A DNA stretch of 51,416 bases, taken from NCBI GenBank assembly GCA_903918025.1, contig CAIXCS010000036.1, forward strand, positions 1 through 51,416, read 5' to 3'. A program made the translations under genes and the position numbers. The notes under the pieces are model-generated. The model saw nothing but the letters and a program-made list of their open reading frames with translations. It was not told the DNA's origin and searched no databases. The stretch is from an uncultured Actinomycetes bacterium (GTDB taxonomy: Bacteria > Actinomycetota > Acidimicrobiia > Acidimicrobiales > RAAP-2). Positions 11,127 through 39,847 of this stretch are shown here, in pieces (within the stretch, counting starts at the first letter, position 1; the number at the start of each line of letters is the position of its first letter).

Positions 11127-11175
11127 CCCCGCTCCTTTCGTTAGCCCGTTCATCGGACTCACGAAAGGGGCGGGG
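11127..11175. terminator. Long imperfect hairpin between convergent genes (candidate bidirectional terminator)
   Basis: ccccgctcctttcg (11127-11140) pairs with cgaaaggggcgggg (11162-11175) at 13 of 14 positions, with a 21-nt loop. The right arm overlaps the last codons of the minus-strand small ORF. A smaller 7-bp hairpin lies at 11087-11105. Confidence 0.35.
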
Positions 11176-11398: not shown

Positions 11399-11399
11399 G

Positions 11400-15572: not shown

Positions 15573-15762
15573 GGGAACGATTCACCCATTGCGCTCTCCG
15601 CCTCGTCGACGTCAAGTGTCCCCAATCTATGGTTGAACGCCACCTTGCTTGGACCAGACCCATCAGATCAAGGGGAAAGTACCGATTGCGCAACTTCCCA
15701 ATTGAGGAACGAAGGATCGAGCGCGTGAGTACGATGCATTCATCCCAGGACAAGGAGTTCCC

Positions 15763-17004: not shown

Positions 17005-17305
17005 GCCCCAGATGTTGGTGAACCAGAAGCCGAACGAGAGCTCCTTTTCTTGCGTTGATCAGGGGTCTCCGACGAATTCGCGAAGGACGCGCTTTCTGCA
17101 CGTTCGCTGAGTAAATCGGACGGTTGGGTTCAACAGGAGCGCTTTTGCCAGCCCGCGGAGCACAGATCCACATTCGTAGGTAACTTTGCAAGTGGGAATA
17201 ACCCAACATCGGCTGACGAAGTCGATGAAACGCCCGAGAACAAGGAACGCCATGCATGAGATTGACTGCTGGGACGCGCATCCAGTCGCGCCTCATGGCG
17301 GGTTC

Positions 17306-20300: not shown

Positions 20301-21442
20301 GGCTCAACAGCCCGAGTGGTCTCGCTTTTGACGCATCGGGCAATCTCTACATTGCTGACTCAGATAACCACGTCATTGAGAAGGTCACACCAGGTGGGGT
20401 GCTGTCCATCGTCGCTGGAACCGGCGCGTATGGAACCCCAATTCCTGGAGTGGCAACAAGTTCGACGCTCTGTTTCCCCAATGGCATTGCAGTTGACGGA
20501 TCGGGCAATCTCTTCATTGCCGACGCCGATGCACATGTCATTGAGAAGGTCACGCCAGCCGGTGCACTCTCTATCGTCGCAGGTACCGGTTTGATTGGTG
20601 CACCGACATCCGGTCCGGCAACGAATTCGCGCTTGAGTGTCCCGAATGGTGTGGTCACGGACGCTCTGGGCAATCTCTATATCGCCGATGCCGACAATCA
20701 CGTGATCGAAAAAGTCACTCCCGGCGGAGTCATCTCCGTCGTCGTTGGAACAGGCAGTTACGGAGCGCCAACCCCTGGTATCGCCACCGCTTCAAAGTTG
20801 AGCTATCCCAATGGAATCGGCATGGACGCTGTGGGCAATCTCTTCATTGCCGACGCCGACGGCCATGTCATTGAGAAGGTCACCTCGATCGTGTTCATCT
20901 CCAACATGCCTCTTTCCGGTGTCGTTGGCGCTTCCTTTACCTCCACCCTTTCGACTACAGGGGACGGTCCGACTTCAGTGACGAGTTCCACACCTGGTGT
21001 GTGTACCGTTTCCGGATCGATCGTGAACTACATCGCTTCCGGCATCTGTCAGCTCACTTCGCACGTTGGACAGGGAACGAAGTACATGGGTGCAAACGGC
21101 ATGCAGCAATCCCTCCAGGTTCAGGGTTTTGCGATCATGCTGCCCTCGCTTCCGCGAGCCACTCGTGGCCGAAGTTTTGGGCCTATTCGGTTGCAATCAA
21201 CTGGAGTTGCCCCTTCAACGCCACTCAAGAGTGTCACGGTTTCGTGGACGCCGGTGGCAGTGCCGCTCGGGCTCAAACTCTCGTCTTCTGGAGTGCTCTC
21301 CGGTGTCGTGACCACCCACGTGGCACCCGGAAACCGTGCAGTCAAGGTGCGCGCCATCGAAACCATCAAGACTCGAGTTGGTGGAACATTCAAGGTGACC
21401 TCATTCGCCGTTCAAGCGACGTTTACCCTCACGATTCGATAG
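17306..21442 (+). CDS. Giant secreted NHL-repeat protein: three modules of 6 NHL blades plus an Ig-like domain, then a C-terminal Ig-like domain
   Basis: I chose the ATG at 17306 (MVPVVKRCIVAGTALATIVSGLTVIGPTLNAGA, a signal peptide) within track ORF 17186..21442. There are 18 copies of the NHL core G-N-L-Y/F-I/V/L-A-D...V-I/V-E/V/Q/D-K-V/I/L-T/S/D-P/Q/S-x-G. Every six blades are followed by LP-SGAVGGSF...TGDG-T-V-S-T-G-C-V-...G-C-L Ig-like inserts. Confidence 0.85.
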   Translation: MVPVVKRCIVAGTALATIVSGLTVIGPTLNAGATATPAPILTLTAGTGVSGVPTPGPAISSKLSNPRGIAIDSLGNLYIADTGDSVIEKVTPTGALSIIAGTGISGVPVPGPAANSPLGHPSGMAVDTAGNLYIADTGYSAIEKITPDGVLSIVAGTGTRGTEISGPATSSPLGVPTGVAVDTSGNLYIADYLNTVVEKVTPDGVLSIAAGSGNFGMPSPGPAVSSPLGNPRGVALDPSGNLYIADSGYGVIERVTQAGVLSVVAGTGIRGTPTPGTATNSKLNNPYALTVDGAGNLYVADADNHVIVKVTSGGMLSIFAGTGIYGTPTPGTATGSKFASPNGVALDPSGNLFIADYDSAVVAGITLSGVLIANLPQSGAVGGSFQPSVASTGDGTTTVTSATPGICSVASSTVNFIAAGTCRLISHVATGPNYSGADGAIQSFTVARGTPSVLLSIIAGTGTQGTTVPGPATSSMLGGPNGVAVDSSGNLYIADYFNHVVQKVTPTGLLSIVVGNGTQGAPTPGSATSSMLSNAQSVAVDAAGNLYIADSDNAVVEKVTPSGILSIVAGTGVPGAPTSGDATHSMLRYPADVAVDSSGNLYIADYSNYVIEKVTPAGNLSIVAGTGNYGTPSPGSATSSRLNGPSGVAVDATGNLYIADSGNALVDKVDPSGALSIVAGNGTSGAPTPGVGIGSMLGYPEGLAVDPSGNLYIADFFNHVIEKLSPAGMLSIVAGTGTSGPPTPGPIGNSMLSGPNGLAVDATGNLYIADYDNAVVEKITPAVSISNLPHSGAVGGSFTPTIATTGDGATSVVSSTNGVCTVSGSTVTYVSVGTCTLIARVGVGTNYTNAEGSNQSFTISRGMPPMLLSVVAGTGTAGTPAPGPATSSRLSNPRGVAVDSSGNLYLADTGYSVIEKVSPSGVLSIVAGTGTPGAPTPGLATSSKLNVPNGVAVDPSGNLYIADSGNSLVEKVTQAGVLSIVAGTGTSGIPTPGAATSSRLNSPSGLAFDASGNLYIADSDNHVIEKVTPGGVLSIVAGTGAYGTPIPGVATSSTLCFPNGIAVDGSGNLFIADADAHVIEKVTPAGALSIVAGTGLIGAPTSGPATNSRLSVPNGVVTDALGNLYIADADNHVIEKVTPGGVISVVVGTGSYGAPTPGIATASKLSYPNGIGMDAVGNLFIADADGHVIEKVTSIVFISNMPLSGVVGASFTSTLSTTGDGPTSVTSSTPGVCTVSGSIVNYIASGICQLTSHVGQGTKYMGANGMQQSLQVQGFAIMLPSLPRATRGRSFGPIRLQSTGVAPSTPLKSVTVSWTPVAVPLGLKLSSSGVLSGVVTTHVAPGNRAVKVRAIETIKTRVGGTFKVTSFAVQATFTLTIR
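17440..21125 (+). repeat. Coding tandem repeats: about 165-177-bp NHL units nested in a super-repeat of about 1.23 kb, present three times
   Basis: The near-identical 20-mer ggcaatctctacattgccga recurs about 18 times (for example near 17528, 17693, 17858, 18024). The Ig-like inserts begin at about 18428, 19658 and 20897, which is a spacing of about 1230 bp. Confidence 0.85.
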
Positions 21443-25693: not shown

Positions 25694-25708
25694 TGGTGCG
25701 GGCGGGGT
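25694..25708 (+). repeat. Direct repeat 1: degenerate copy (13/15) of the tRNA-Arg 3' end (tggtgcgggcggggt)
   Basis: It starts 1 nt after the amt stop codon. Compare 28286-28300 and 29594-29608 (tggtgcgggcggagg). Confidence 0.75.
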
Positions 25709-25781
25709 TGTTGAGTTTCACGGCTTGGTTGATAGATGAGTCGCGACGTTGTTGATACGGACGTGAACTCCACGACGGGGA

Positions 25782-26190
25782 ATGTCCAAGTCTCTCGGCG
25801 TGGTGTAGTCAGTCATTCACCAGGGTTTGTCAACGGCCAACGTGGCGATGAGGTACAACGTGTCATGCCCCAGGCCCGCACCTTGGTGACCCGCTCGGGC
25901 GCCGGAGGTCTTGGAACTACAGCGCCCCGGAGTTCTTGATCGACCAGTAATCCTCGGCAATGACAAACGACACGGCTGCAGCAATCGTCTCGCTCCGCCA
26001 CGAGCTGGTTGCCCCTGGGTCTAGACGAAGGTCCCATCACCATTGCATGGTGCTTCCGACAGCGGCGCCAGGCCGAGCCGTCAACCTCAAGCATGGTCCG
26101 TTGTTTCTCTGCAATGGTCGTGTGTAGCGCTGGGGCTGCTGAGTAGTGACCTGTCGTGGCGTTTCGACGACGGCGTTCAGTCGGCACCAA
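25782..26190 (+). pseudogene. IS481-family transposase 5' remnant (HTH region only; frameshifted, with stops)
   Basis: The DNA is collinear with 28374 to about 28780 (shared strings aatgtccaag, gtaatcctcggcaa, tcgctccgccacga, atcaccattgc). It is broken by stops and truncated at the fic stop codon. It keeps TGG (I-A-W) where the intact copy has TGA. Confidence 0.65.
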
Positions 26191-26192
26191 GC

Positions 26193-26789
26193 TCAGGTGA
26201 CGACAAATTCCTCGAGCGGTCCGAAATCCCCTCGGTCCGCAGCTCGTAGAGCGATGAGATATTGCTGTCGGACTTGCTCGATATTGCGAGCTCCGCTGAA
26301 AGCGCCCCAGGTGAGCGGCGGCTGCCCTAGTGCCACTATGAGGTAATCGGCAGCCAGACGGCCATGTCTGCCGTTGCCGTTGGAGAACGGGTGAATCCAA
26401 ACGAGGCGGTGATGAAACCGGACTGCAGCGATCAGTGGCTCCTCGCTTGCAATCCAAATCTTGGTATCGCTCACGAGGTCTCGCACCCTGACGGCAATCT
26501 GCACGGGATCGATGCCAAGCGACATCTCGAGTTGCCGATACTGGCCAGCCCAAGTCCAAACGTCACCAAACATTGCTCGATGAAGGTCTCGTAGATACTT
26601 GTCGTCCAGCAGCGCCTCTACCGTTGGCGGCCGTCTCCCCTGACGCGCTCGAAGGATGTTCTCCTGTTCCGCCTCGTTCAACTCGTCACGCGTCGTGACG
26701 TAGGTCAACTTCAACCCTTGGCGGTCGTCGTCACCAAGTGGCGTGTGGCCATCTCCAAGTGGAATGAGCGGATTGGTGGGCGGGGTCAT
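26193..26789 (-). CDS. Fic-family protein of the 'mobile mystery protein B' type
   Basis: It has the Fic motif HPFSNGNGRHGR, preceded by RFHHRLVWI. FGDVWTWAGQYR and an N-terminal DELNEAEQENI match my recollection of the mob_myst_B family. Confidence 0.85.
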   Translation of the reverse strand: MTPPTNPLIPLGDGHTPLGDDDRQGLKLTYVTTRDELNEAEQENILRARQGRRPPTVEALLDDKYLRDLHRAMFGDVWTWAGQYRQLEMSLGIDPVQIAVRVRDLVSDTKIWIASEEPLIAAVRFHHRLVWIHPFSNGNGRHGRLAADYLIVALGQPPLTWGAFSGARNIEQVRQQYLIALRAADRGDFGPLEEFVVT

Positions 26790-27253
26790 GAAGTCAGCCG
26801 CGTTTTGGGCTCTGCCCAGAGGTTTCGTCCGTCTACAAATTGTTTGGCAAGCTCATCAACTTGTGCCTCGGCGACGGCAGGCCCTGGTGCCTGATCCTCG
26901 AGGGCCATCGTGTGCCACACAACCTCGACTTCGGCCCGTGCTCGCAGAACGGCCTGACGGTGCACCATCTCCTCGAGTGGCTCGTTTGGCACGAAGACAT
27001 AGTGAACTTGGCAGTTCAGAGCTCGGGCAGCGCGCTCGAGCGTGTCGAGGCGGATAGAACCCAGCTCTTCTGACCGTTCGAGTTGGCTGATTCGGGACTG
27101 GGTGATACCCATGCGTTGACTGAGTTCGCCTGTAGTCATGCCGAGCGCCTGCCTGATCGCTCGGATCCAGCCTCGAGGCGGTCGCTCACCCAAGTCAAGA
27201 CCGGCAAGTCGTTGATCAAGACGTCTCCTCGCGGTGCGTCGAATGGTGTTCAC
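26786..27253 (-). CDS. XRE-type HTH protein of the 'mobile mystery protein A' type (putative antitoxin/regulator of the Fic protein)
   Basis: It has RGWIRAIRQALGMTTGELSQRMGITQSRISQLERSE (an HTH_XRE) followed by LDTLERAARALNCQVHYVFVP. A 4-nt overlap couples it to fic. Confidence 0.8.
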   Translation of the reverse strand: MNTIRRTARRRLDQRLAGLDLGERPPRGWIRAIRQALGMTTGELSQRMGITQSRISQLERSEELGSIRLDTLERAARALNCQVHYVFVPNEPLEEMVHRQAVLRARAEVEVVWHTMALEDQAPGPAVAEAQVDELAKQFVDGRNLWAEPKTRLTS

Positions 27254-27314
27254 TTCGGCTCCTTTGAGTAGAAAGAACTACTTACTTACCTATCAGGCTA
27301 GTAGATAAAGCAAC

Positions 27315-27339
27315 TGATAACTCACAAAATGAGTTGATA
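27315..27339. promoter_or_regulatory. Candidate operator: an inverted repeat in the AT-rich leader upstream of the XRE gene
   Basis: The sequence is tgatAACTCAcaaaaTGAGTTgata, a 6-bp perfect inverted repeat flanked by tgata/gata. It lies about 60-85 nt upstream of the start at 27253, in the most AT-rich stretch of the window. Confidence 0.2.
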
Positions 27340-27556
27340 ATCCTATTAAAAGCGTCTTCGCTCCATGGGGTTGAGCACGGCCGTCGTACTCACGAAGATC
27401 ACCTAAAAGGACAAGAGTGTCAGTAGGGAAGCGTGGACGCCGCCTCCACGGAGTCCTTGACTCGAACAGCGGTCGAACCATTGATGCCTTGGCGCAGGTA
27501 CTTCAAAACTCAGCCAATCGATGACATTGAAACGCTCGGAAGTCCTCTCCGACGAC

Positions 27557-28135
27557 TTACAACTTTGAGGCATCAAGCAGGCCTATAAGCCACTCTTCGG
27601 TAGCGGACCATCTTCTTCGTTCCGACTTCACCCACATCGTCATGACAAATACGCCCCATAGGAAGAAACCGGGTGGAAACAAGAGCGCTGCCGGATGGAT
27701 GGCATGCATCGAGGGTCCCGAATTCAACGCGGAGAAGATAAGGATTACTTCCATAGAAAGGCAGAACAGAAACATGAATGCCATCATCAAGGGTAGAAGT
27801 GCAATCGGCCCAACGCTTCCGACTAGGAGGGATCCTGTCGAAGTGGGTTCAATCACTCCATTGAACGAAAAGGCCGAATTATTACTGAGCCAACTCCTAG
27901 TTTTGATCGTGAAGTCTGCACCTTGGACCCAACCCCCCTGCTTCGCACTCAACCACCCGACGAATGATCCGGTGCGGAGCGATTCGGCGAGGCGATGTCG
28001 AACGATGTCTGAAGGCAAGGAAGTTTCAAACACGACATTCTGTTTAAAGAGTGGGAGTCTTCTGACTCGACCATAAATCCGAGGAATCACCGAATCACTT
28101 TCGGGTGGAACACCGTCATCATTCGAGTGGTTCAC
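27557..28135 (-). CDS. Hypothetical membrane protein (cargo of the decayed element)
   Basis: This 192-aa protein has a soluble N-terminal half and then 2-3 TM helices (PIALLPLMMAFMFLFCLSMEVILIF; LLFPPGFFLWGVFVMTMWV). It is visibly more AT-rich than the backbone genes, and I recognise no motif. Confidence 0.45.
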   Translation of the reverse strand: MNHSNDDGVPPESDSVIPRIYGRVRRLPLFKQNVVFETSLPSDIVRHRLAESLRTGSFVGWLSAKQGGWVQGADFTIKTRSWLSNNSAFSFNGVIEPTSTGSLLVGSVGPIALLPLMMAFMFLFCLSMEVILIFSALNSGPSMHAIHPAALLFPPGFFLWGVFVMTMWVKSERRRWSATEEWLIGLLDASKL

Positions 28136-28285: not shown

Positions 28286-28300
28286 TGGTGCGGGCGGAGG
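28286..28300 (+). repeat. Direct repeat 2: exact 15-bp copy of the tRNA-Arg 3' end (tggtgcgggcggagg), the target-site duplication of the intact IS
   Basis: It is identical to 29594-29608 and lies immediately outside the left IR. Confidence 0.85.
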
Positions 28301-29593
28301 TGTTTAGGTTCACGACCTTGTTGATACCTGTGTCGCGTCATCGTTGATACTGGCATGACCCCCACGATGGGGAATGTCCAAGGCTCGAGTCATTGTGTTG
28401 TCGGTCGTGCACCAAGGTCTAACCAAGGCTGAAGTGGCCAAGAAGTACAACGTGTCGTGGCAGTGGGTCCATACGCTCGTGACTCGCTACAACGCCGGTG
28501 GCCTCGAGGCGGTTGAACCGAGAAGCTCTCGACCAGCGAGTAATCCTCGGCAACTCTCTCCCACTACGGCAGCAGCCATCATTTCGCTCCGCCACGAACT
28601 CGTTGCTCAAGGTTTAGATGCCGGGCCAATCACCATTGCCTGACACCTTGAGCGCCAAGGACAACACGTCCCCTCAGTGTCGAGCATTCGTCGGGTGCTC
28701 CTTGGAGCAGGCCTCGTCCCACCTGAACCGAAAAAGCGTCCGAAAGCATCGTTGCAACGATTCGAAGCCGACCAACCCAATGAGATGTGGCAATCAGACT
28801 TCACTCACTGGCATCTCGCAGATGACAGTGATGTGGAGATCATCAATTGGCTCGATGATCACTCCAGATTTCTCTTGGCCATGGTGGTGCATCGCAGGAT
28901 CACTGGTCGCATCGTGATCGAGACCTTCACCGATTGCGTCAATGCCTTTGGTCTTCCAGCGTCAACCCTGACGGACAATGGCGTCGTCTACACAACCCGC
29001 CTCATTGGAGGGCGAAACGGCTTTGAGCACTTGCTCGCCTCACTCGGAGTCATCCAGAAAAATGGACAACCGAGTCACCCGCAGACGCAGGGCAAAATCG
29101 AACGATTCCATCAAACACTCAAGAAATGGCTCACCGAACAGCCGTCTGCGGCCACCATTGAGCAACTCCAAGGACAACTCGATCGCTTTCGAGAGCTCTA
29201 CAACGAACACCGGCCCCACCGAGGAGCACATCGACAAACACCAGGCACTGCTTATCGAGCAACGCCAAAAGCAACTGCTCGTTCGCGAGGATCGATTCAC
29301 TATCGAGTTCGCTTTGACAACGTTGACCAATTCGGCAAAATGACCCTTCGCCATGCAGGAGTGCTTCGCCATCTTGGAATTGGCAATCAACACGCTGGAG
29401 CGAAGGCATTGCTCCTCATTGATGCAGCAATGGTGACGGTGACAGACCTGTCAACTGGCGAAATTCTCTCGCAGCATCACATCGACGAGAGCAAGAACTA
29501 CTGGCGCAATCAACTTCGACAGCCCGGCCGCTGGCCGAGGTGACTATCAACGGTGTCGCGACTCATCTATCAACGATGTCGCGACTCATCACA
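28301..29593 (+). mobile_element. IS481-family insertion sequence (1293 bp) inserted in the 3' end of tRNA-Arg
   Basis: The left IR is TGTTTAGGTTCACGACCTTGTTGATA (28301-28326). The complement of the right IR is TGTGATGAGTCGCGACATCGTTGATA (29568-29593). They match at 18 of 26 positions by my alignment. A single transposase frame lies inside, and the element is flanked by a perfect 15-bp direct repeat. Confidence 0.8.
28374..29543 (+). pseudogene. IS481-family DDE transposase (HTH plus rve integrase core) interrupted by one in-frame TGA
   Basis: Track ORFs 28374..28643 and 28677..29543 are in the same frame. The read-through sequence is ...GPITIA*HLERQGQHVPSVSSIRRVLLGAGLVPPEPKKRP.... The rve core is present (MWQSDFTHW..DD.SRF; TDNG..Y). 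The TGA at 28641-28643 replaces the Trp codon that the remnant copy retains. Confidence 0.8.
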
Positions 29594-29670
29594 TGGTGCG
29601 GGCGGAGGGATTCGAACCCCCAACCTTCTGATCCGTAGTCAGATGCTCTAATCCGTTGAGCTACGCCCGC
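29594..29670 (-). tRNA. tRNA-Arg (anticodon ACG), CCA encoded
   Basis: The reverse complement is GCGGGCGTAGCTCAACGGATTAGAGCATCTGACTACGGATCAGAAGGTTGGGGGTTCGAATCCCTCCGCCCGCACCA. It folds as a cloverleaf with anticodon stem TCTGA/TCAGA, loop CTACGGA, and T-loop TTCGAAT. Confidence 0.9.
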
Positions 29671-30420: not shown

Positions 30421-31587
30421 ATGACGACCGCATTTGAATCGGCCAATCTCGGTCCACTCACAATCAAGAACCGCATTATCAAAGCAGCGACGTTTGAGGG
30501 TCGAGCACCGAAGGGTGACGTCACCCAAGATCTGATTGATTTCCACGTGCAGATGGCAGAAGGTGGCGTTGGTATGACGACCGTCGCCTACCTGGCGGTG
30601 GCTCCAGAAGGACGAACCGATCGCAATTGCGTCCTGCTTTCAGACGCCGACAACGTTGCCAAATTGCAGACGCTCACGAACGCAGTTCACGAAGCTGGAG
30701 CCAAGATTTCGGCTCAGGTTGGTCACGCTGGCCCGGTTGCGAACAGCCGGTCAAACCGGGTCCCGACCCTCTCACCTTCCGGAGGACGTTCGCCCCTCGG
30801 AATGGTCTCCCACGAAGCCACCGAAGCGGACCTCGACAGAATCTTGATCGCCTTTACTGAGTCGGCAAGAAATGCAGTTGACGCCGGATTCGATTGCATT
30901 GAGCTTCACCTAGGTCACGGGTATCTGTTGTCATCGTTCATGAGTCCGAAAGCCAACTCTCGAACCGATGCGTATGGAGGAAGTCTCGAAGCCCGATCGC
31001 TCTACCCGCGAAAAGTCGTGGAGGCCGTCAAAGAAGTCATTGGCAACCAGGTGGCGCTCACCGCCAAAATCTCTATGAGGGATGGAACGAAGGGTGGCAT
31101 TGAGCTCGAGGACTCCATTCCGACTGCGAAGCTCTTAGAGGCAGACGGCCACCTTGACGCCCTTGTCTTGACTGCCGGAAGTTCCCTCAATAATCCGATG
31201 TATCTCTTTCGCGGCAAGGCGCCCCGCAAGGAATTTGCCGCAACCCTCCCACAGCCCCTCAAACTCGGTTTCAAGATTGTCGGACGCCATTTCATGCCGG
31301 ACTACCCCTACGAAGAGGCGTACTTCTTACCAATGGCGAGTCAATTTCGAGAGGCCCTCACCATGCCGCTCGTCCTCCTCGGTGGTGTTGCCAACGCAGC
31401 AACCATTGAGCAGGGTCTCGATGCTGGCTTCGAGTTCGTTGCCATGGGACGCGCTCTGCTCGCAGAACCTGACCTGCTCCTTCGCTACGAGGCCGGAACC
31501 GCAACGACGTCGAAGTGCACGCACTGCAATCGCTGCATGCCCTCGATCTACACCGGCACTCGCTGCACGGAGTTTGTGACCGCTTAA
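30421..31587 (+). CDS. NADH:flavin oxidoreductase (Old Yellow Enzyme family)
   Basis: It contains LTIKNRIIKAATFEG, HAGP and ELHLGHGYLLSSFMSPKANSRTDAYGGSLEARS, a classic OYE TIM-barrel motif. Confidence 0.85.
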   Translation: MTTAFESANLGPLTIKNRIIKAATFEGRAPKGDVTQDLIDFHVQMAEGGVGMTTVAYLAVAPEGRTDRNCVLLSDADNVAKLQTLTNAVHEAGAKISAQVGHAGPVANSRSNRVPTLSPSGGRSPLGMVSHEATEADLDRILIAFTESARNAVDAGFDCIELHLGHGYLLSSFMSPKANSRTDAYGGSLEARSLYPRKVVEAVKEVIGNQVALTAKISMRDGTKGGIELEDSIPTAKLLEADGHLDALVLTAGSSLNNPMYLFRGKAPRKEFAATLPQPLKLGFKIVGRHFMPDYPYEEAYFLPMASQFREALTMPLVLLGGVANAATIEQGLDAGFEFVAMGRALLAEPDLLLRYEAGTATTSKCTHCNRCMPSIYTGTRCTEFVTA

Positions 31588-32390
31588 GCCATCTCGTCGG
31601 CGAACAGGTAATGGCCTCCAAGAATGCCGGCGATGTTGCCGACAACGGTGATTCTGTCGAGGCGCTTGCCAAAACCGTCACGTCGGACAGTTCGAGCATT
31701 GCCACCACCAATGTAGAGATGGTCGAAGTTCACGAGATCATCAAGAAGCTCGACGGCTCGATGAACGAGAAGCGTCCACTGGTCATCGCCAATTCGCTTG
31801 CGAGCACGGTTCCCGAGTTCTCCATCGAGCGTTCCACTTCGAAGAAGTGGCATCGATCCCATTTCCATGTGCGGCGTCGCCACGCCATCTCGATACAGCG
31901 CAAATCCAAACCCAGTGCCAAGGGTGATGACGACTTCGATGCCTCGTCGAGCAATGACGGCGAGACCCTGCATTTCGGCATCATTCACCACTCGAACTGG
32001 TCGACCAATGGACCGCTCAAGCGCAGCCTCGAGCGGGAAACCCCTCCATGCCTTTCGAAGAACCGGATCAGCTTTCTGGCCAAGTCCCATTGACGATTCA
32101 AAGTGCGGAGCCACGAGAATCTTTCCCTCACGCACGACCCCTGGAAAGCCAACGGCCATTCTCGAGGTCACCGGGAACTTGGCTGAAAACTGGGTCAGGA
32201 GATGGACCATGGAGTCAATGCCTTCGGGTGGCAGTGGATACGGCGTCGAAAACTTCAACCGTTTCGTTACCATCTGTCCCTGAGCATCGAGCACCGCTCC
32301 CTTAATGCCGGTCCCGCCAATGTCAATGGCGAGGGTCGAAGGTGGTTGAACGCTCACGGAGCGAAAGGGTAGTGCCCGCGCCGACAACAC
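31584..32390 (-). CDS. ppgK: ROK-family polyphosphate/ATP glucokinase
   Basis: It contains LAIDIGGTGIKGAVLD, GFPGVVREG, NDAEMQG and ITLGTGFG. Its 268-aa length is typical of actinobacterial PPGK. Confidence 0.7.
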   Translation of the reverse strand: MLSARALPFRSVSVQPPSTLAIDIGGTGIKGAVLDAQGQMVTKRLKFSTPYPLPPEGIDSMVHLLTQFSAKFPVTSRMAVGFPGVVREGKILVAPHFESSMGLGQKADPVLRKAWRGFPLEAALERSIGRPVRVVNDAEMQGLAVIARRGIEVVITLGTGFGFALYRDGVATPHMEMGSMPLLRSGTLDGELGNRARKRIGDDQWTLLVHRAVELLDDLVNFDHLYIGGGNARTVRRDGFGKRLDRITVVGNIAGILGGHYLFADEMA

Positions 32391-32414: not shown

Positions 32415-33773
32415 TCATTTCGCAGACTTCTTCCGCGTCATTCCGCCAAGACTCACCACGAAGGGACGTTCGGTGTCATAGAGCACGATTGCCTGTCCGC
32501 GCTCAAGGGCGACCAGTTGTTCACCTCGGAGACGAGGTCGCCGTTCGCGTTGCACATGGGTGGATACCTCGCCTTTCGCTCGAGTAGTTGAGCTGGTCTC
32601 CACCACTTCTTCGCCGCTCAAGTCACGGAACATCTGGACCGTCGTTGGATCAATGGTTCCCGCACACAGCACTCGGGCTCGATGGTTGAGCACGAGTGAC
32701 GTGCCAAGAGCTCCGTGGCGAGCCACAACCTGACCAATGTCTTGGAACACCGTCAGCAGCGTGATGCCTTGACCTACTCCCGTCGCGGCAAGTTGGGCAA
32801 GTGTTTCGAGACCGGCGAGTTGCGCCGCTTCGTCTTGAACGACCAGAAGTGGTTGGCGGAGGCGACCCCCTTCAGACGCCGCACGTCGCATTGCGTGATC
32901 GAGCGCTTCGTTTCGTATGGCGGTCAGCATTCCTCGCGAGCGATCTTGGTCCCTCAGGGGGGCGCAGAGATACAGGGTTCCTTTGGCTTCAAGGAGTTGA
33001 TCAAAATCGAGACGGCCGCCAATACCGGATCCTCCATCAATGAGCGATTCGACCACTACCTCAATTGTCGTCGTGATCGAACTCGACTGCCGGGGATCGC
33101 GATCAAGACTTCCGAGCACCACCCGATAGGCATCGTGTTCGGATGCTGCAAGGAGAATTGCCAATGGCTCACTGAGCTGCTGTTCACTAATCCATGAAAG
33201 GAGTTCAGCAAGCGTGGCATCTGACAGTGCGGCGGCGAGGAGCAGTGGAGCCAGCATTCTCGCGGCTGCTGCGAGCCAAAAGGCTTCGTCGCCACTCGGC
33301 ACCATGGCGCTTGACGCAGCGCAGAGATCCTTGGCAAGTCGACGAGCCTCGCTGAAGGTGCCAACAGACGCCATGGGATTCCAAGAAACCGTCGGGAAGG
33401 TGCTCGCCTTTCCTGGGTCAATCACTGCAACTGGACCTCGACGTGAGCGGTGTTCCACGGTCGCTCGGAGCACGTCATCTTTGACGCTCGAAACGAGGAC
33501 CGGTCCATCCCAGTTCTCAATTGCCGGAATGACGAGCCGAGTGGTTTTTCCCGATTGTGTGGGACCAACAATGACCACGCTGTGCCCCGCCTCAGCCGAG
33601 ACCCCTCGATGGTTTGCTCTCCCGAGCTTCACGCGGTTGGGACCTTCTCCAGTAAGTCGTCTCGGAATTGACGTTCGGCGCTCTCCCTCTCGACTTCTTG
33701 CTATTCGTCTTCCAAGCCGTTCAGGTGAAGAGAGCACCGCAACGAGAGCCAGACTCACCACGGCGATGATCAA
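32415..33773 (-). CDS. VirD4/TraG-like type IV coupling-protein ATPase
   Basis: It has an N-terminal TM, Walker A (IVGPTQSGKTTRLVIP) and Walker B (PLLVVQDEAAQL). A 4-nt overlap joins it to the upstream ATPase gene. Confidence 0.65.
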   Translation of the reverse strand: MIIAVVSLALVAVLSSPERLGRRIARSREGERRTSIPRRLTGEGPNRVKLGRANHRGVSAEAGHSVVIVGPTQSGKTTRLVIPAIENWDGPVLVSSVKDDVLRATVEHRSRRGPVAVIDPGKASTFPTVSWNPMASVGTFSEARRLAKDLCAASSAMVPSGDEAFWLAAAARMLAPLLLAAALSDATLAELLSWISEQQLSEPLAILLAASEHDAYRVVLGSLDRDPRQSSSITTTIEVVVESLIDGGSGIGGRLDFDQLLEAKGTLYLCAPLRDQDRSRGMLTAIRNEALDHAMRRAASEGGRLRQPLLVVQDEAAQLAGLETLAQLAATGVGQGITLLTVFQDIGQVVARHGALGTSLVLNHRARVLCAGTIDPTTVQMFRDLSGEEVVETSSTTRAKGEVSTHVQRERRPRLRGEQLVALERGQAIVLYDTERPFVVSLGGMTRKKSAK

Positions 33774-34996
33774 CGTCGCATCGCGTGATCGCTATCGATC
33801 ATTTCCCGCTCGTGATCGTGAACGTGATGTCGAACAAGATGCGCTTCACCTGAAACTCTCCAAAGTGCGACTCCCCTTCCGAGGGTTGGAAGGAGTCCAA
33901 TCTCGGTTGCACCGTGCCCGAGGATCTCCCCCGCATCAGTTGCATCCTCCTGTCCGAGTTGGAAACACACCGACGTCCCTGAATCAGCCAACAATCCAGC
34001 TGCGAGCGCGACGGTTGAGTCGCCGCGGTCACCAACTCCAAGGACATCGGAAACACGGTGCAGCACGAGAATGTTTGACGTTGCCGTTGATCGCGCCAAT
34101 TTCCACGAACCTTGGAGCCAACGAGAGACACTCAAATCACTGAGTACTGCCCACGCTTCATCGAGCACCAAATACCTCGGGCTCAAGGGGGTCGAACTCG
34201 CACCCTCCAGCCACGCAAGTGTGCAGGCAATGACCAGGGGCAGTGCGCTCGTGTTCCAAACGGCAGAGAGGTCGAGGATCACGAGCGAGTGGTCAAGTGT
34301 GCACGATGGCGAGGTGACGGCATCGAACATTCCAGCCAGATCCCCTTCCGTCAGGCGAAGGAGTTCAAGCGCGAGTTCTCGGCCATCGATCTGCAGTGCA
34401 CTGACGGAACAGTGGAGGCGCTTGGCGGCACTCGCCTGAGGCTCAAACAGCGCATCGCCAATTGCTCCAATGGTGGCATTGCTCATCAGTGAAACAGCCC
34501 CTCTCGCCTCAACGAGCGCTGCTCGTTCTCCAGGGGTGAGGCCACGCTTGAGGCCATGTTCAAGAAGGGCCACGAGTAGCGCCACATCTGTGCGAATCGA
34601 CGTTGGATCAGGGCCCCCACGAACGGGGTTCAGTTGGATCGATCCACCTGGTTCCAGTCGAATGGGTGTCACGCCGACCACCGCAGCGAGTGACTCGTAC
34701 TCCCCCTTCGGATCGAGCACCACTGCCCTCCGGCCTCGTTTGAGTTCACGCAGGAGAAACGTCTTGATGAACGCGCTCTTGCCCTTCCCAAGTTGTCCAA
34801 GCACCACAAGATTGGGATTGGTCACGAAGCCCTGGGCATACGCCGTGAAGGGATCAAACGTGAACTCCCCTCCAAGGAGATCCGCACCAATTGCAGTGCC
34901 GTGATTGACCATGGAGCCAGTGGTCACGGGCGCTAACACCCCAAGATGTTCCGTCGTCCATTCAAACGATGCCTGCAGCCAACGCTTCCTCTTCAC
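33770..34996 (-). CDS. VirB4-like T4SS ATPase domain protein (C-terminal half of a split VirB4)
   Basis: It has Walker A (VLGQLGKGKSAFIKT) and Walker B (RYLVLDEAWAVL). It is coupled by 4 nt to both neighbours. Confidence 0.65.
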   Translation of the reverse strand: MKRKRWLQASFEWTTEHLGVLAPVTTGSMVNHGTAIGADLLGGEFTFDPFTAYAQGFVTNPNLVVLGQLGKGKSAFIKTFLLRELKRGRRAVVLDPKGEYESLAAVVGVTPIRLEPGGSIQLNPVRGGPDPTSIRTDVALLVALLEHGLKRGLTPGERAALVEARGAVSLMSNATIGAIGDALFEPQASAAKRLHCSVSALQIDGRELALELLRLTEGDLAGMFDAVTSPSCTLDHSLVILDLSAVWNTSALPLVIACTLAWLEGASSTPLSPRYLVLDEAWAVLSDLSVSRWLQGSWKLARSTATSNILVLHRVSDVLGVGDRGDSTVALAAGLLADSGTSVCFQLGQEDATDAGEILGHGATEIGLLPTLGRGVALWRVSGEAHLVRHHVHDHEREMIDSDHAMRR

Positions 34997-36153
34997 CGGA
35001 TGCCTTCTCTCGGGTTCCCAAGTGCACGAAGGACTCGAAGTTGGCGCCCAAAGGAGGTGGCAACGTCAATCTCCATCGTCGAACCGAGTCCAAGGAGCGA
35101 CGACTGACGAGTGGCAAGAGCACTCCGAGTCACACCTCGAACCGTGAGGAACATCGTCGCCTCCACCGGAACGGAACCCGCGGCCAGTGAAGCTTCGTAG
35201 GAGTCTCGACCTTCCGTCAGCCGTTCGGCCCTTGCTGACCTTCGAAACCCTCGGCGTTCAAGGACCCCTCGATCGGCCATTGAGCCCGTTTGACGTCGCT
35301 CAAGGCGACGCTGAAAGCCGGTGCGACTCGGAACTCGGATGGTAAGGGCCATACAGTCAAACGGCGGGTCAACAACCAGAGAGAGACCGAAGTTGAGTGC
35401 GACCGGGCGTTCCGGGAAGGAACGCACAATGACTGACGACCACCAACCAGACTTGGTCCGAGTGCTCCCGAGATGCACCTTCCGAGTTCGCCCGGTTGCA
35501 ACGACTTGGCGGTCTGTTTCGACTCGCGAACCAATAACCCACTGTTTTCCCTGCAACTGCTCGAGAAAAGCGTTGACGGCATCGTCGTGACCACTTGGAA
35601 CAATGAGCAAGGTCACGAGGTGGTGCTGCGAATTCGAGAGTTCGAGTCTGTCTGCCAGATGGAGGTCGAGGAAGTGTTGTCGACAGGTCAAGAGTTGAAC
35701 CGGGGCTGCTGATCGTGCACCAAGTTGCGCCAGGGCAAGACCAAACTGCGATCGAATGACCACCTGTTGACTTGATGACCGCAGGTGAAGATCGGGAGCG
35801 TGCAGCACCATCACAGTTCGGAGCTGAAGCTTGGCAGCGGTTTGACGCGAAGCATCACCTCGAAGCATGAGGAGTTCCTCGCTCCAACACGCGAAGTGGC
35901 CCATCCACTGATCAATGCCAAATCCTCGAAACTCAAAAACGGCGAGAAGAAGAGCAACGCCGATGAAGAGGAGCGCTAACGGCAAACGAAACATGTCTCG
36001 AATCGAACCAAGACACCACAACGACAGCCCAAGTGCACCGACGGCGGCGGCGGCCTGAGTTGGCCGCAAGATACCAAGCAGTTTGCGTTCGTACCGAGGG
36101 GGGAAGTGGATAGTTGGCGCAGGCTCACTCACGCTCGGCACCTCGTTCAACAA
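34993..36153 (-). CDS. SCO6880/PrgI-VirB3-like membrane protein (N-terminal half of a split VirB4)
   Basis: Its N-terminus (ERKLLGILRPTQAAAAVGALGLSLWCL...LALLFIGVALLLAVFEF) forms a two-TM hairpin, followed by a soluble domain of about 290 aa. This architecture is seen in actinobacterial conjugation clusters. Confidence 0.5.
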   Translation of the reverse strand: MLNEVPSVSEPAPTIHFPPRYERKLLGILRPTQAAAAVGALGLSLWCLGSIRDMFRLPLALLFIGVALLLAVFEFRGFGIDQWMGHFACWSEELLMLRGDASRQTAAKLQLRTVMVLHAPDLHLRSSSQQVVIRSQFGLALAQLGARSAAPVQLLTCRQHFLDLHLADRLELSNSQHHLVTLLIVPSGHDDAVNAFLEQLQGKQWVIGSRVETDRQVVATGRTRKVHLGSTRTKSGWWSSVIVRSFPERPVALNFGLSLVVDPPFDCMALTIRVPSRTGFQRRLERRQTGSMADRGVLERRGFRRSARAERLTEGRDSYEASLAAGSVPVEATMFLTVRGVTRSALATRQSSLLGLGSTMEIDVATSFGRQLRVLRALGNPREGIR

Positions 36154-37342
36154 AGGTGAGTACCGGCCCGAGCGCGTCGTGCGTCAGTACATGATCGCCG
36201 AGTGCTGACGCGGGAGTACCAAGTGGTGCTTGAGGCCTTGTCGGCGGTCGAGGTGGCGGTGGCGTGATGCCGACCACTCCTCCAATGTTCACCGCCCCTT
36301 CGGAGCTTGCGATCTTCGCTGGGAGTCCACCTGCCGGGGACTGCTCCACGAGGTGCTCAATCGCTCCTGCTCCGACGCCGGCAGGGATCGCACTCGCTCC
36401 TGCCATCGCCGCTCTTCCGATGGTGGTGGCGGACCTCGTCGCTCGCTGGCGCTGACCTTCGAGTCCGGTCGACAAGACCGCTTCAGCCAGCGGGACAATC
36501 CTGAGCACAAGAAAAGGTGAGAAGGCAGCCAGGAGCAACATCGTGATCCCAACCAAGATCCCGGCTACCCCCGACTGGCCCGAAATCGCTGATGCAGCCA
36601 TAGAAAGCACGGCAACAATGACAAATTTCGACAGCACCAACGCAAGGAGAAGCTCAACCAGCCGCTTTGCGGCTCGTCCCATCTGTGGCCACACTTGAGC
36701 GGCCATGGTGAGCGGGAGGAACAACACCACGATTGCTATGGCCGCTGAACGAAGCAGCAGTTCACACCAAAGCGCCACTGAAGCAAGGATGGTAATGAGG
36801 CCGAGCAGCGCGCTGAGAAGCCCTGGTATTCCTCCACCCGTTGCAACCGATGTCACAGACAGGTGCACCATTGCTTTGACGAGTTCGGTAGAGCCATGGC
36901 CACTCAGGGCATCGAAGGACGCGGAAAGTTGATCGACACCGGTAAGCGCCAGCGTCGTTACCCGAATGCCAACGGCGACGACCAGTCCTGCGATGGGGAG
37001 ATGGAGAAACATCGCCCGAAAAAGGAGCATCGGTTCACTTCGAATTGATGCTTCAACTGCTGTGGCCACGAGCGCAATCACGGCGAACGTCCCTGACAGG
37101 AGCACCATCGCTCGATAATGGGTCGTGAACCAAGAAGCCGTGAGGTCGACGGCCGTTGTCGTGTTGAGGAGATGCCCAACCATTGAGAGGACGAATACTG
37201 CCGCCCTCGTGACTGCTTGGAGAAGGCCCCCGAACAGCCCGTTGACCAGATCTCCCGTAGCAGAAGACGCGACGGAACAGATCGGGTCAAGCACAGAGAG
37301 TCCGAGACATCGTGGCTGGAGTGGGGCGGCGAAGAGAATCAA
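36125..37342 (-). CDS. VirB6/TrbL-like polytopic T4SS membrane protein with a Pro-rich C-terminus
   Basis: It has at least 6 TM helices (for example LLSALLGLITILASVALWCELLL; IAIVVLFLPLTMAA; LVELLLALVLSKFVIVAVL) and a C-terminal PPPPRPPTRPQAP. The track ORF begins at 37636 inside the upstream gene. I propose the TTG at 37342, which overlaps the upstream stop (TTGA). The start is uncertain. Confidence 0.5.
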   Translation of the reverse strand: MILFAAPLQPRCLGLSVLDPICSVASSATGDLVNGLFGGLLQAVTRAAVFVLSMVGHLLNTTTAVDLTASWFTTHYRAMVLLSGTFAVIALVATAVEASIRSEPMLLFRAMFLHLPIAGLVVAVGIRVTTLALTGVDQLSASFDALSGHGSTELVKAMVHLSVTSVATGGGIPGLLSALLGLITILASVALWCELLLRSAAIAIVVLFLPLTMAAQVWPQMGRAAKRLVELLLALVLSKFVIVAVLSMAASAISGQSGVAGILVGITMLLLAAFSPFLVLRIVPLAEAVLSTGLEGQRQRATRSATTIGRAAMAGASAIPAGVGAGAIEHLVEQSPAGGLPAKIASSEGAVNIGGVVGITPPPPRPPTRPQAPLGTPASALGDHVLTHDALGPVLTFVERGAERE

Positions 37343-37671
37343 TGGATACCCGATCCAGTCTTGAAGAAGAAGTTCACGAGAATTGGAGCGGCCCCGACGA
37401 GCAACGCTGCACCAAGTGACGCAGCGACGGCGCGACGACCGACATTTGCTTGCTGATAATTCTGCGCATGGGCACCGACAGCCCAGAGCCCGGCGCCGAC
37501 AACGAGGCCAACCATCGCTCCGATGAGCGCCCACCCGGCCAGACCATTTGCCAGGGTCTGAAGAGCTCCACTTCCGGGAATTGCCGTTGGGGTTGGTGAC
37601 AGTTGCACCGAGAAATGGAACTGCGGCACTACCCAATGTTCTGCTCGGACAACTACTGATGGTTTGGTCAT
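37339..37671 (-). CDS. Small two-TM T4SS pilin-like protein (DUF6112-like)
   Basis: It is hidden in the 3' part of track ORF 37339..37983(-). From the ATG at 37671 the sequence is MTKPSVVVRAEHW...LPGSGALQTLANGLAGWALIGAMVGLVVGAGLWAVGAHAQNYQQANVGRRAVAASLGAALLVGAAPILVNFFF. This is a hydrophobic hairpin typical of VirB2-type or actinobacterial DUF6112 proteins. An alternative start is at 37707. Confidence 0.5.
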   Translation of the reverse strand: MTKPSVVVRAEHWVVPQFHFSVQLSPTPTAIPGSGALQTLANGLAGWALIGAMVGLVVGAGLWAVGAHAQNYQQANVGRRAVAASLGAALLVGAAPILVNFFFKTGSGIH

Positions 37672-37787
37672 CAACGCTCCTCGAATGGTGAGGCGCACAA
37701 CCTGCATTTCGCTTTCGCCCTGAACCTCGCAGAGTCTCCTGAGGCAGAACTTCATCTCATCGGGGACGTGCCTGCCATGATGGAGGG

Positions 37788-39095
37788 GTGCACCTCCTCG
37801 TTGCAGCCAAGTTGTTCGGTCTCCCCGAATGGGCACTTCTGTCAATTGTCGGCGTCCTCGTCGTCGGTGTTGGCTGGTTGGGGCTCGCCACTGGCCGAAG
37901 GACTGGTCAGCGCGCAATCGCGAGCCGAATGGCTTCGCTTGGTGCACGGCTCGGATCAGATGGCCCGGGTCCCGACGCCACACTCGAAGAAGGCCTCACC
38001 TATTTGGAGCAGGTGACTGGTGCGGCCGCCGAAGCCGTCACCCAACAGTCAGCTGATGCGCTCCGACTTCGCCGAGCGCTCGACACCCTTCCTGAAGGCG
38101 TCATCATCTGCGACGAGAGCGGCGTCGTCCTCTACCGCAATGGTCGCGCTAATGACCTCATGACGAGCAGAAGCGGCGATGCACTCGCCGCTCAGGCGGT
38201 AACCGACCTCTTGCAAGAGGCGTGGACGGTCGGAAGTGCAGAGAAGACCCTTGATCTCTTCGGTCCACCTCGCTCGACCCTCTCGATTCGTACCCAACTC
38301 ATTGATGACGGCAGGCGACCAGTCGGAGTCGTGGCGCTCATTGAAGACGTCTCGGAGCGACGCCGGCTCGATGAAGTTCGCAGGGACTTCATTGCGAATG
38401 TCTCGCATGAGCTCAAGACGCCAATGGGGGCACTCGGACTCTTGGCCGAGACCTTGATGATCGAGCGCGACAAGGACGTTGCCATTCGCTTGGCCGACCG
38501 AATTCACCGCGAGGCATTCCGAGTGAGTCGAATCATTGACGACCTCCTCGACCTCTCGAGAATTGAGTCTGAAATTTCACCCCCACGAGAGCCAGTCCAA
38601 GTTGGTCTCGTCATGGCGGAAGCAGCAGAACGCATTCGGTCGGCCTCAGAACAACGCGAGATCACGATCAACATGCTCGAACCAGATCCCGCGCTCCTTG
38701 TGCTTGGGGACCGTCGCCAATTGGTCTCGGCCGTTCACGCCTTGCTTGAAAATGCCGTGACCTACTCCTCGGCTGGAGATGAAGTGCTTCTCAAGGCTGA
38801 TCTCGACCCAACACCGATGGAGAGCGAGCAAGGCGGCCTTGAGGTTGAGACCGAACAGATTCAACTTTCCGTCATTGACCATGGTGTCGGCATCCCCTCT
38901 CGGGATCTCGACAGAATCTTCGAGCGCTTCTACCGGGTCGACATGGGTCGCAGCCGCGAGACGGGAGGGACCGGGCTTGGGTTGGCAATCGTTCGCCACG
39001 TTGCCCAGAACCATCAAGGTCGCGTCGACGTCAGTTCACGTGAAGGCGAAGGGTCGACATTCACCTTGGTGCTTCCTCGGTTTAGCCAACCATGA
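37788..39095 (+). CDS. senX3: Sensor histidine kinase, SenX3/PhoR-like (TM, PAS, HisKA, HATPase)
   Basis: It has the H-box FIANVSHELKTPMGAL, an N/G-box (LLENAVTYS...DHGVGI...GGTGLGLAIV) and a PAS-like segment (EGVIICDESGVVLYRN). It has a GTG start. Confidence 0.8.
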   Translation: MHLLVAAKLFGLPEWALLSIVGVLVVGVGWLGLATGRRTGQRAIASRMASLGARLGSDGPGPDATLEEGLTYLEQVTGAAAEAVTQQSADALRLRRALDTLPEGVIICDESGVVLYRNGRANDLMTSRSGDALAAQAVTDLLQEAWTVGSAEKTLDLFGPPRSTLSIRTQLIDDGRRPVGVVALIEDVSERRRLDEVRRDFIANVSHELKTPMGALGLLAETLMIERDKDVAIRLADRIHREAFRVSRIIDDLLDLSRIESEISPPREPVQVGLVMAEAAERIRSASEQREITINMLEPDPALLVLGDRRQLVSAVHALLENAVTYSSAGDEVLLKADLDPTPMESEQGGLEVETEQIQLSVIDHGVGIPSRDLDRIFERFYRVDMGRSRETGGTGLGLAIVRHVAQNHQGRVDVSSREGEGSTFTLVLPRFSQP

Positions 39096-39847
39096 GTGAG
39101 AAGAAGAAGGGGAAGAGCCAAGCAATCCCCCAAGCTCGTATTTCGGTGCTGCTCGTTGAAGACGAAGAGTCCTTCGTTGATGCTCTCCAAATCGGACTCA
39201 CGTCTGAAGGGTTCGACGTCACCATTGCTCGAGATGGAGTTGAAGCACTGCAGGAATTTGACGAGGGCTCCTTTGACTTGATTCTTCTCGACATGATGCT
39301 CCCGAGATTGTCCGGTCTTGACGTCTGTCGAACCATTCGCGGCCAATCAGACGTACCCATCATCATGGTGACGGCAAAGAGTGAGGAAATCGACACTGTG
39401 GTTGCGCTGGAAATTGGCGCGGATGACTACGTCACGAAGCCGTACCGGCTCAGAGAACTCGTCGCTCGAATGCGGGCAGTTCTCCGTCGTCAAGCGGCGG
39501 AGGGGGTTGCTTCCGGGGATGAGGACGGCTTCGAGGTGATTGAACTCGGCGATGTTCGACTCGAACTCGATCGTCGTCGAGCCATTGTTCGAGGCGAAGA
39601 GGTCCATCTCCGCCGCAAAGAATTCGATCTCTTGGCAATCTTGATGGAGAACGCCGGTCGAGTCCTCACGAGGGAAGTCCTCATCGACCGGATCTGGGGG
39701 TCTGACTACATCGGCGACACCAAGACCCTCGATGTTCACGTCAAGAGGGTCCGGACAACCATTGAAGCCGACCCGAAGAGTCCACTCATGCTCACGACTA
39801 TCCGCGGCGTTGGCTATCGCTTCGACGGCAAACCAAAGACTGACTGA
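39092..39847 (+). CDS. regX3: OmpR-family response regulator, RegX3-like
   Basis: It has a receiver domain (VLLVEDEESF...DLILLDMMLP...VTAKS) and a winged helix (LTRKEFDLL...VWG...TKTLDVHVKRVR...I.TIRGVGYRF). An ATGA overlap joins it to the kinase gene. Confidence 0.85.
   Translation: MSEKKKGKSQAIPQARISVLLVEDEESFVDALQIGLTSEGFDVTIARDGVEALQEFDEGSFDLILLDMMLPRLSGLDVCRTIRGQSDVPIIMVTAKSEEIDTVVALEIGADDYVTKPYRLRELVARMRAVLRRQAAEGVASGDEDGFEVIELGDVRLELDRRRAIVRGEEVHLRRKEFDLLAILMENAGRVLTREVLIDRIWGSDYIGDTKTLDVHVKRVRTTIEADPKSPLMLTTIRGVGYRFDGKPKTD

Follow-up and report, generated by a model that had tools for sequence, protein, structure and literature searches.

The cmdABCDEF operon (SCO4126-4131) of Streptomyces coelicolor is co-transcribed, is conserved among Streptomyces and encodes five membrane proteins together with the membrane-located VirB4-like ATPase CmdB, the conserved lysines of which are essential (Xie, Zeng and Qin 2009, PMC2782261). 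Deletion of the operon caused sporulation defects, delayed aerial growth, disturbed septation and chromosome segregation and raised actinorhodin production, and transfer of an SLP2 derivative was unaffected, though SLP2.21-23 resemble SCO4127-4129; related SLP2 genes are required for plasmid transfer, and SCO6878, SCO6880 and SCO6881 are similar, in that order, to cmdB, cmdC and cmdD (PMC2782261). Nearly all known Gram-positive type IV secretion systems (T4SSs) are conjugation systems according to a 2025 review, in which the cmd-type system is not mentioned (PMC12857230), and our literature search found almost no follow-up on the cmd work and no paper tying T4SS genes to Acidimicrobiia. Here we describe a five-gene T4SS-like cluster in a 51,416-nt contig (CAIXCS010000036.1, assembly GCA_903918025.1) from an uncultured member of the Acidimicrobiales (Acidimicrobiia), which is referred to at its full length as the window. 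Judged from its genes and their relatives, the cluster is probably a chromosomal, vertically inherited and functional member of the SCO6880/SCO6881/DUF6112 type, and not an integrative and conjugative element (ICE) or the remnant of one.

The cluster consists of five overlapping open reading frames (ORFs) on the minus strand at 32415-37671, denoted here by g1 to g5 from upstream to downstream. The ORF list and a reading of the sequence placed all five at the coordinates given by the initial annotation, and the junctions also agreed with its description (TTGA, 29 nt, 4 nt and 4 nt): g1 and g2 share TTGA, g2 and g3 overlap by 29 nt (8 nt with an alternative GTG start of g3), g3 and g4 share GTGA, and g4 and g5 share TTGA. 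A GAGGAG Shine-Dalgarno sequence stands ahead of the g1 ATG. In the public gene call, g3 begins at the later GTG (36132, 379 aa) and g5 begins later than the overlapping TTG; for g5 the overlapping TTG is favoured, because the single N-terminal transmembrane segment is conserved in relatives.

The two ATPases were assigned by profile and, in the case of g4, by predicted fold. The last gene, g5 (32415-33773, 452 aa), encodes by its profile matches a clear VirD4/TraG-type coupling protein with one N-terminal transmembrane anchor, as it matched the Pfam families T4SS-DNA_transf (110 bits, cutoff 20.1), TrwB_AAD_bind (45.5 bits) and TraG-D_C (43.3 bits) and has intact Walker A (GPTQSGKT) and Walker B (LLVVQDEAA) motifs. 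The CmdB/SCO6878-like product of g4 (33770-34996, 408 aa) is a short VirB4-type ATPase, with Pfam matches to P-loop_TraG (30 bits) and AAA_10 (29.9 bits) that are both above the cutoffs and with intact Walker A (GQLGKGKS) and Walker B (LVLDEAW) motifs; the VirB4/TraC profiles match it by their C-terminal halves only. Its AlphaFold2 (AF2) model (predicted local distance difference test, pLDDT, 85.3; predicted template modelling score, pTM, 0.84) had the Thermoanaerobacter VirB4 C-terminal domain (4AG6/4AG5, E 1e-18, TM-score 0.73-0.79) as its best matches in the Protein Data Bank (PDB), with R388 TrwK next and HerA and TrwB lower. By profile and modelled fold, g4 is the VirB4 C-terminal ATPase domain. 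Both ATPase identities proposed in the initial annotation, and with them its T4SS call, are thus supported by the profiles.

The two first genes of the cluster encode membrane proteins. The g1 product (37339-37671, 110 aa) has two hydrophobic segments (48-66 and 81-99) and matched Pfam DUF6112 above its cutoff (34 bits, cutoff 25), with a weak match to T4SS_pilin (17.8 bits) and one to TIGR03745, an ICE membrane protein (E 0.0015). It had been described as a two-transmembrane, pilin-like protein; the two segments stand, and the likeness to VirB2 and other pilins is suggested by topology and the weak T4SS_pilin match only. The g2 product (36125-37342, 405 aa) has about 6-7 transmembrane segments and a Pro-rich C-terminal tail, and its residues 31-327 matched positions 26-324 of the 329-position NCBIfam profile SCO6881_fam (E 8.8e-14), with 51 bits against an 'exception' cutoff of 325. 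An equivalent of g2 was found in most related loci. Its transmembrane segments and gene position fit a VirB6-like polytopic channel protein; of the earlier VirB6/TrbL-like description, the polytopic topology and the tail were confirmed, the family match being to SCO6881_fam and not to TrbL or VirB6. Both 'VirB6-like' for g2 and 'pilin-like' for g1 are putative names, drawn from topology, gene position and weak or named-family matches only.

In the case of g3 (34993-36153, 386 aa), the direct match to SCO6880_fam reached 23.8 bits only (cutoff 60), and an exhaustive HMMER search among 1.84e9 (1.84 billion) representative proteins detected 9 relatives; word-indexed searches returned 2 proteins with g3 as the query and 4 with the g3-family profile. 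Within the loci fetched for comparison (numbered with the prefix L), jackhmmer connected g3, almost without exception, to the gene lying directly upstream of VirB4 (g4). Among 32 aligned positional equivalents of g3, 31 matched SCO6880_fam (best 5.5e-103), 13 matched the VirB4-like model CD1110, and 10 matched EccE of the type VII secretion system (T7SS) below threshold (17-24 bits, cutoff 108); the equivalent in L087 also gave a weak EccE match in Pfam. Because g3 is linked by jackhmmer and by position to a family of which 31 of 32 members pass the SCO6880_fam model, g3 is, on these profile grounds, a divergent member of the SCO6880 family, with an N-terminal transmembrane hairpin followed by a cytoplasmic, VirB4-N-like domain. 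The window's clade of g3 lacks about 100 residues after the hairpin, as compared to typical family members.

The CD1110 matches of typical g3-family members start at profile positions 39-201 and end at 362-363 of 752, and the match of g4 to the same profile begins at position 412 (that of a Streptomyces g4 homologue covers positions 370-728). Therefore, g3 and g4 look like a VirB4 divided between two genes, of which one encodes the N-terminal half with its membrane anchor and the other the ATPase half, a reading with consistent but weak support. The initial annotation had named g3 VirB3/PrgI plus VirB4-N-like; the VirB4-N part agrees with the weak CD1110 matches of family members, and for the VirB3 part no VirB3 profile match to g3 was obtained, what is seen being an N-terminal transmembrane hairpin fused to the VirB4-N-like domain. 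A search of PDB sequences with the g3-family profile also gave no VirB4 or VirB3 match. As a separate observation, g3 evolves far faster than its neighbours, with 15-20% identity to the family outside its own clade versus 43-50% for g4. In four Acidimicrobiaceae loci (L008, L013, L032 and L041), about 1.4-3.2 kb of extra sequence lies between the SCO6880-like and VirB4 genes, which do not overlap there.

The chromosomal position of the cluster is shared by its relatives. The same arrangement was found in a metagenome-assembled genome (MAG) with an 85% identical VirD4 (L001), and freshwater contigs with VirB4 only 50-57% identical keep the full neighbourhood, in the order CtaA, UbiA, ABC transporter, serS, regulator, kinase, the five genes, ROK and OYE; another contig, at 45-47% identity, still keeps most of it. 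Kinase and regulator genes were found at most 9 kb upstream of the VirB4 gene in 57 of the 113 fetched loci that had at least 7 kb of upstream sequence, some contigs having been fetched twice. Across 27 distinct syntenic loci (351 non-independent pairs), the pairwise identities of VirB4 and serS were correlated with r = 0.84, at least as tightly as those of serS and the regulator (r = 0.75). Relative to L001, dN/dS was 0.034 for g1, 0.055 for g2, 0.16 for g3 (still under purifying selection), 0.087 for g4 and 0.129 for g5, with 0.03-0.09 for the flanking genes, and dS was 0.6-0.9, the cluster being like its flanks. The GC content of the cluster (0.575-0.61) is likewise ordinary for the window (about 0.58). 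Low dN/dS, matching dS and co-divergence indicate that the genes were kept by selection and diverged with the backbone. The initial annotation had taken the cluster for a domesticated machine rather than an ICE and had proposed checking its synteny in related genomes and its composition; synteny down to 50-57% VirB4 identity, co-divergence, selection and backbone GC all agree with that view.

In Pfam scans of selected ORFs over the 51 kb, nothing matched a relaxase, a tyrosine or serine integrase, Rep, NlpC/P60 or a transglycosylase, which bears out what had been said of relaxase, replication and hydrolase genes from the sequence alone. No Pfam family of VirB8-like proteins or VirB1-like wall hydrolases was found in the operon or the 51-kb window, where some ORFs were without any Pfam match (e.g. 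13547-15753 and 25813-26559), and no relaxase family was present in the 20-kb neighbourhoods of relatives. EccC, EccB, EccD and WXG100 were also absent from the window, and T7SS components were represented by the sub-threshold EccE matches of the g3 family only. A T7SS identity was accordingly rejected.

The earlier statement that no integrase adjoins the cluster held for tyrosine and serine integrases, and it had missed an IS481-family element, a tRNA-Arg gene and a 'mobile mystery protein A' gene. The sole recombinase in the window is the transposase of the IS481-family element, past the tRNA-Arg. This insertion sequence (IS) has terminal inverted repeats at 28329-28349 and 29568-29588. Two ORFs share its transposase, one for a helix-turn-helix (HTH) part at 28374-28643 and one for the rve integrase-core domain at 28677-29543, and 23 nt are duplicated in tandem at 29544-29589. 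The element directly abuts the 3' end of the tRNA-Arg(ACG) gene (29594-29670, minus strand). The transposase was considered as an ICE integrase and rejected, since it comes with inverted repeats of its own and is located past the tRNA. Further away, there are a partial second copy of the left end of the IS (25694-26049 versus 28286-28642, 76-85% identical) and, between the two copies, the 'mobile mystery protein A' gene (26786-27253; TIGR02612, 143 bits) and an ORF without assigned function (27557-28135). The repeats found between 20 and 30.4 kb are those of the IS, the GC content dips to 0.53-0.545 across 27-30 kb, and the region 25694-28135 has the appearance of a composite structure or of what is left of an island.

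All of this mobile DNA lies beyond the 3' end of the tRNA and faces away from the cluster; the tRNA-Arg gene, the IS481-family transposase and the 'mobile mystery protein A' gene are about 2.8-5.6 kb past g5. Three genes, namely ROK, OYE and one for a small membrane protein, stand between the cluster and the tRNA-Arg/IS. Where the window has the IS, relatives have islands with a tyrosine integrase and a cargo of defence or toxin genes that varies (L002 17015-20796, L004 15400-20833 and L005 15372-21221), including ScoMcrA-like, AbiEi/AbiEii, Fic, PIN/VapC and HTH_17 genes, and their integrases are outside the ROK-OYE block. The tRNA-Arg site is an integration hot spot.

Upstream of g1, a divergent intergenic region of 116 nt (37672-37787), the presumed operon promoter region, separates the cluster from a PhoR/SenX3-like histidine kinase gene (37788-39095, plus strand), which is followed by an OmpR-family response regulator gene (39092-39847, plus strand), both assigned by profile match. 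The initial annotation had named this flank senX3-regX3-serS. Its divergent layout was confirmed, and serS passed its profile cutoff; the best NCBIfam matches of the kinase were PnpS and PhoR, both below the cutoffs, and the regulator matched YycF/MtrA/PhoB-type models. The divergent arrangement of kinase and operon is conserved in 57 fetched loci. A scan for operon promoters and terminators gave nothing above chance, with no sigma-70 consensus in the 116-nt region, and an alignment of this region with those of relatives showed no evident regulator box and, as conserved sequence, only one short block beside the start of the kinase gene. Kinase and regulator are thus tied to the operon by synteny, and phosphate-linked control would be a lead only.

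On the other side, a ROK-family gene (31584-32390, minus strand) starts 24 nt past the g5 stop, and not 25 nt as first given. It is not part of the T4SS. Its annotation as ppgK agrees with its best match, NCBIfam PolPhglucPhase (polyphosphate-glucose phosphotransferase), at 94.6 bits and so below the cutoff of 250. In L004 and L005 the ROK gene overlaps the end of g5, and in L002 and L003 an opposite-strand amidase gene separates the two; possibly, the ROK gene is co-transcribed with the operon. Polyphosphate-type genes occur near the cluster in two contexts, ROK here and Ppx in L087, which belongs to the same lead on phosphate-linked control. Elsewhere in the window, at 17186-21442, a 1418-aa NHL/beta-propeller repeat protein is encoded, with at least 5 tandem 165-nt units in the 3' part of its gene (20000-20854, 66-73% identical).

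A degenerate-pattern scan with one genome per GTDB species found relatives in at least 543 genomes, mostly from Acidimicrobiales and also from Solirubrobacterales, Gaiellales and others, and all scans combined raised this to at least 596 species-level genomes. The gene contexts vary among these relatives. In L087, genes for enolase, DivIC, DUF501, Ppx and a ParA-like protein lie upstream of a longer version of the cluster, the ParA/MinD-like ATPase gene (2969-4291) being directly upstream of DUF6112. A ParA/MinD-like gene also immediately precedes DUF6112, near position 5000, in L053, L063, L111, L114, L129, L144 and L155 (Gaiellales, Thermoleophilia and unclassified Actinomycetota), and the window's clade has none. 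For Frankia, the same ParA-like gene before DUF6112 and the same gene order have been listed (bioRxiv 10.64898/2026.07.10.737749). L006, a locus on a 938-kb contig, has at 10001-12753 the VirB4-VirD4 pair alone (47% and 39% identity) and lacks DUF6112, SCO6881 and SCO6880 genes upstream of it.

A second VirB4 lineage is 79-86% identical across L080, L073, L086, L089 and L091, in MAGs labelled Actinokineospora, Microthrixaceae, Acidimicrobiales, Actinomyces and Iamiaceae, which suggests either a recently spreading mobile version or mis-binned contigs. Homologues of g4, at most 37.5% identical to it, were found on 198 actinobacterial plasmids, and the Iamia sp. plasmid NZ_CP050949 carries a SCO6880-family gene and a type IV coupling protein (T4CP). 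Streptomyces, Kitasatospora and Streptacidiphilus (L153 and L157-L221) have a SCO6878/SCO6881-type cluster with VirB4 76-97% identical, and SCO6878-type loci were the only Streptomyces ones that the scans returned. In all four listed records that are complete or at chromosome level, the cluster is located towards a chromosome end; in the Streptomyces locus L153, a SCO6881_fam match of 580 bits accompanies the short VirB4, and a transposase-like ORF adjoins.

From the homologies above, a minimal translocon of the cytoplasmic membrane with two ATPases can be proposed. The g3 protein would supply a VirB3-like transmembrane hairpin and the VirB4 N-terminal domain and would dock the separate VirB4 ATPase domain, g4, at the cytoplasmic membrane, so that the two would form a split VirB4. 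The polytopic g2 and the small, two-transmembrane g1 may build the membrane channel, and g5, anchored by its single transmembrane segment, would pick the substrate and feed it in; assembly, transport direction and substrate are all inferred in this scheme. By analogy, the cargo is most likely DNA or nucleoprotein, moved in the service of the host and not so that a mobile element can transfer itself, which is favoured because of the coupling-protein architecture and the chromosome-segregation phenotype of cmd mutants. The machine may handle the chromosome in step with the cell cycle, as would be suggested by the phenotype of cmd mutants, or may release or take up DNA without a relaxase. Self-transfer appears unlikely from the gene content, because there is no relaxase, hydrolase, VirB8 or adhesin.

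The same parts could also serve as a host-encoded conjugation or mobilisation apparatus that acts in trans on islands or plasmids bearing a relaxase and an origin of transfer (oriT), for instance on tRNA-Arg islands. In g5, two domains of conjugative coupling proteins are retained, the one for TraM recognition (TraG-D_C) and the all-alpha one of DNA-binding type, homologous modules sit on the 198 plasmids, including the Iamia plasmid, plasmid transfer depends on related SLP2 genes (PMC2782261), and actinobacteria have many MOB genes and surprisingly few recognised T4SSs (Guglielmini et al., PMC3158045). Islands with integrase and excisionase-like (HTH_17) genes indeed lie 3-4 kb off in relatives; however, those of L002-L005 carry no relaxase family, the cmd deletion left SLP2 transfer unchanged, and the cluster has no wall hydrolase or adhesin for mating-pair formation. 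Strict position and co-divergence over deep divergence would also be unusual for a machine mainly in the service of mobile elements, and we regard this use as unlikely.

Protein secretion or membrane-protein handling, in the manner of effector-translocating T4SSs or type VII-like machines, is in our opinion an improbable role as well. Coupling proteins of known effector systems recruit protein substrates too, neither the operon nor the window has a relaxase or other DNA-processing gene, and EccE was matched by 10 of the 32 g3-family members and, weakly in Pfam, by the L087 protein. These EccE matches are nevertheless far under the cutoff and have no EccC, EccB or EccD beside them, no WXG100-like or effector-like substrate gene is conserved beside the cluster, and the cmd mutant phenotype points to chromosome segregation. 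As for a remnant in decay, left by an integrated conjugative element or plasmid after the loss of its relaxase, integrase and hydrolase, the IS481 element, the 'mobile mystery protein A' gene and the GC dip beside the tRNA-Arg, the shortened and fast-evolving g3, and the plasmid-borne modules elsewhere could all be read in this way. Yet the five ORFs are intact, with dN/dS of at most 0.16 and the dS and GC of the backbone, the same locus recurs in dozens of species-level genomes, and the IS and island face away beyond the tRNA with three genes intervening. The remnant was rejected on conservation and selection; it is largely refuted and its probability is very small.

Several points weigh against the reading of the cluster as a functional, vertically inherited machine with a split VirB4. 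The VirB4-N similarity of the g3 family is weak (E 2.5e-5 to 1.6e-3), g3 itself is very divergent and shortened, with the family motifs WPR and ELADGH degraded in its clade, and its AF2 model, built from 2 sequences, was unusable (pLDDT 34.8). The Pfam scan of g2 gave no TrbL/VirB6 model match, the 351 pairs of the identity correlation are not independent of each other, and no hydrolase or VirB8-like part is present for a crossing of the wall. Moreover, the Acidimicrobiia system is known here from its genes alone, the likeness to cmdABCDEF was drawn from protein families and the published description, and the host is planktonic and presumably non-sporulating, so that the cmd phenotype may not transfer to it.

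A broader view, which is speculative and, in our estimate, rather doubtful, is that the cluster represents an ancient, vertically inherited organelle of the Actinomycetota (Acidimicrobiia, Thermoleophilia and Actinomycetes) that became fixed beside a PhoR/SenX3-type phosphate-sensing system in the Acidimicrobiales and was exapted from conjugation for a relaxase-independent host function. Its role could then be a release or uptake of DNA under the control of phosphate limitation, or a septum-associated translocation of the chromosome. If true, this would be the first widespread non-conjugative T4SS of Gram-positive bacteria. Apart from that, these actinobacterial groups commonly carry a short T4SS-like operon with a putatively split VirB4 (the 596 or more species-level genomes above), which in the Acidimicrobiales has the character of a core chromosomal trait and is under purifying selection. 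The fixed neighbours, the plasmid-borne relatives and a tractable Streptomyces counterpart provide a comparative framework for relaxase-less Gram-positive T4SSs, and the divergent PhoR-like two-component genes, whose pairing with the operon is conserved, give a regulatory lead that can be tested.

Compared to known systems, the cluster is closest in kind to cmdABCDEF, with which it shares a co-directional chromosomal operon conserved among species, membrane proteins and a short membrane-associated VirB4-like ATPase. The cmd paralogues SCO6878, SCO6880 and SCO6881 define the NCBIfam families that are matched by g2, g3 and their positional equivalents, and cmdABCDEF is not required for plasmid transfer. 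The two differ in that cmd has six genes and the present cluster five, next to a PhoR/SenX3-like two-component system and with a g3 that is about 100 aa shorter and highly diverged. The same protein families make up the SCO6871-6884-type clusters and the plasmid modules (SLP2 transfer genes and the Iamia plasmid); those copies, however, are on plasmids or on chromosome arms near transposases and are at most 38% identical to g4, and the SLP2 genes serve conjugal transfer, whereas in the window the cluster has a fixed place on the chromosome and diverges in step with housekeeping genes.

The Helicobacter pylori ComB system for DNA uptake offers a comparable case, a chromosomal, relaxase-less, T4SS-derived machine with a host function, but it has no VirD4 and has outer-membrane core components. 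A reduced parts list similar to the present one, without VirB1-like or VirB8-like components, is that of the minimal Gram-positive/Mollicutes T4SS (Bhatty/Christie model; PMC12857230) and of the mycoplasma ICE apparatus, which has VirD4, VirB4, one protein resembling VirB6 and two resembling VirB3; the mycoplasma system is carried by an ICE and conjugative in wall-less cells, in contrast to the putatively split VirB4, the walled host and the absence of an ICE context here. The kind of system is therefore already known, since SCO6880, SCO6881 and DUF6112 are named families and the cmd operon (2009) is a studied chromosomal example. By its sequence relationships, the window's cluster is a new and divergent Acidimicrobiia member of this kind, with unusually clear evidence of vertical inheritance.

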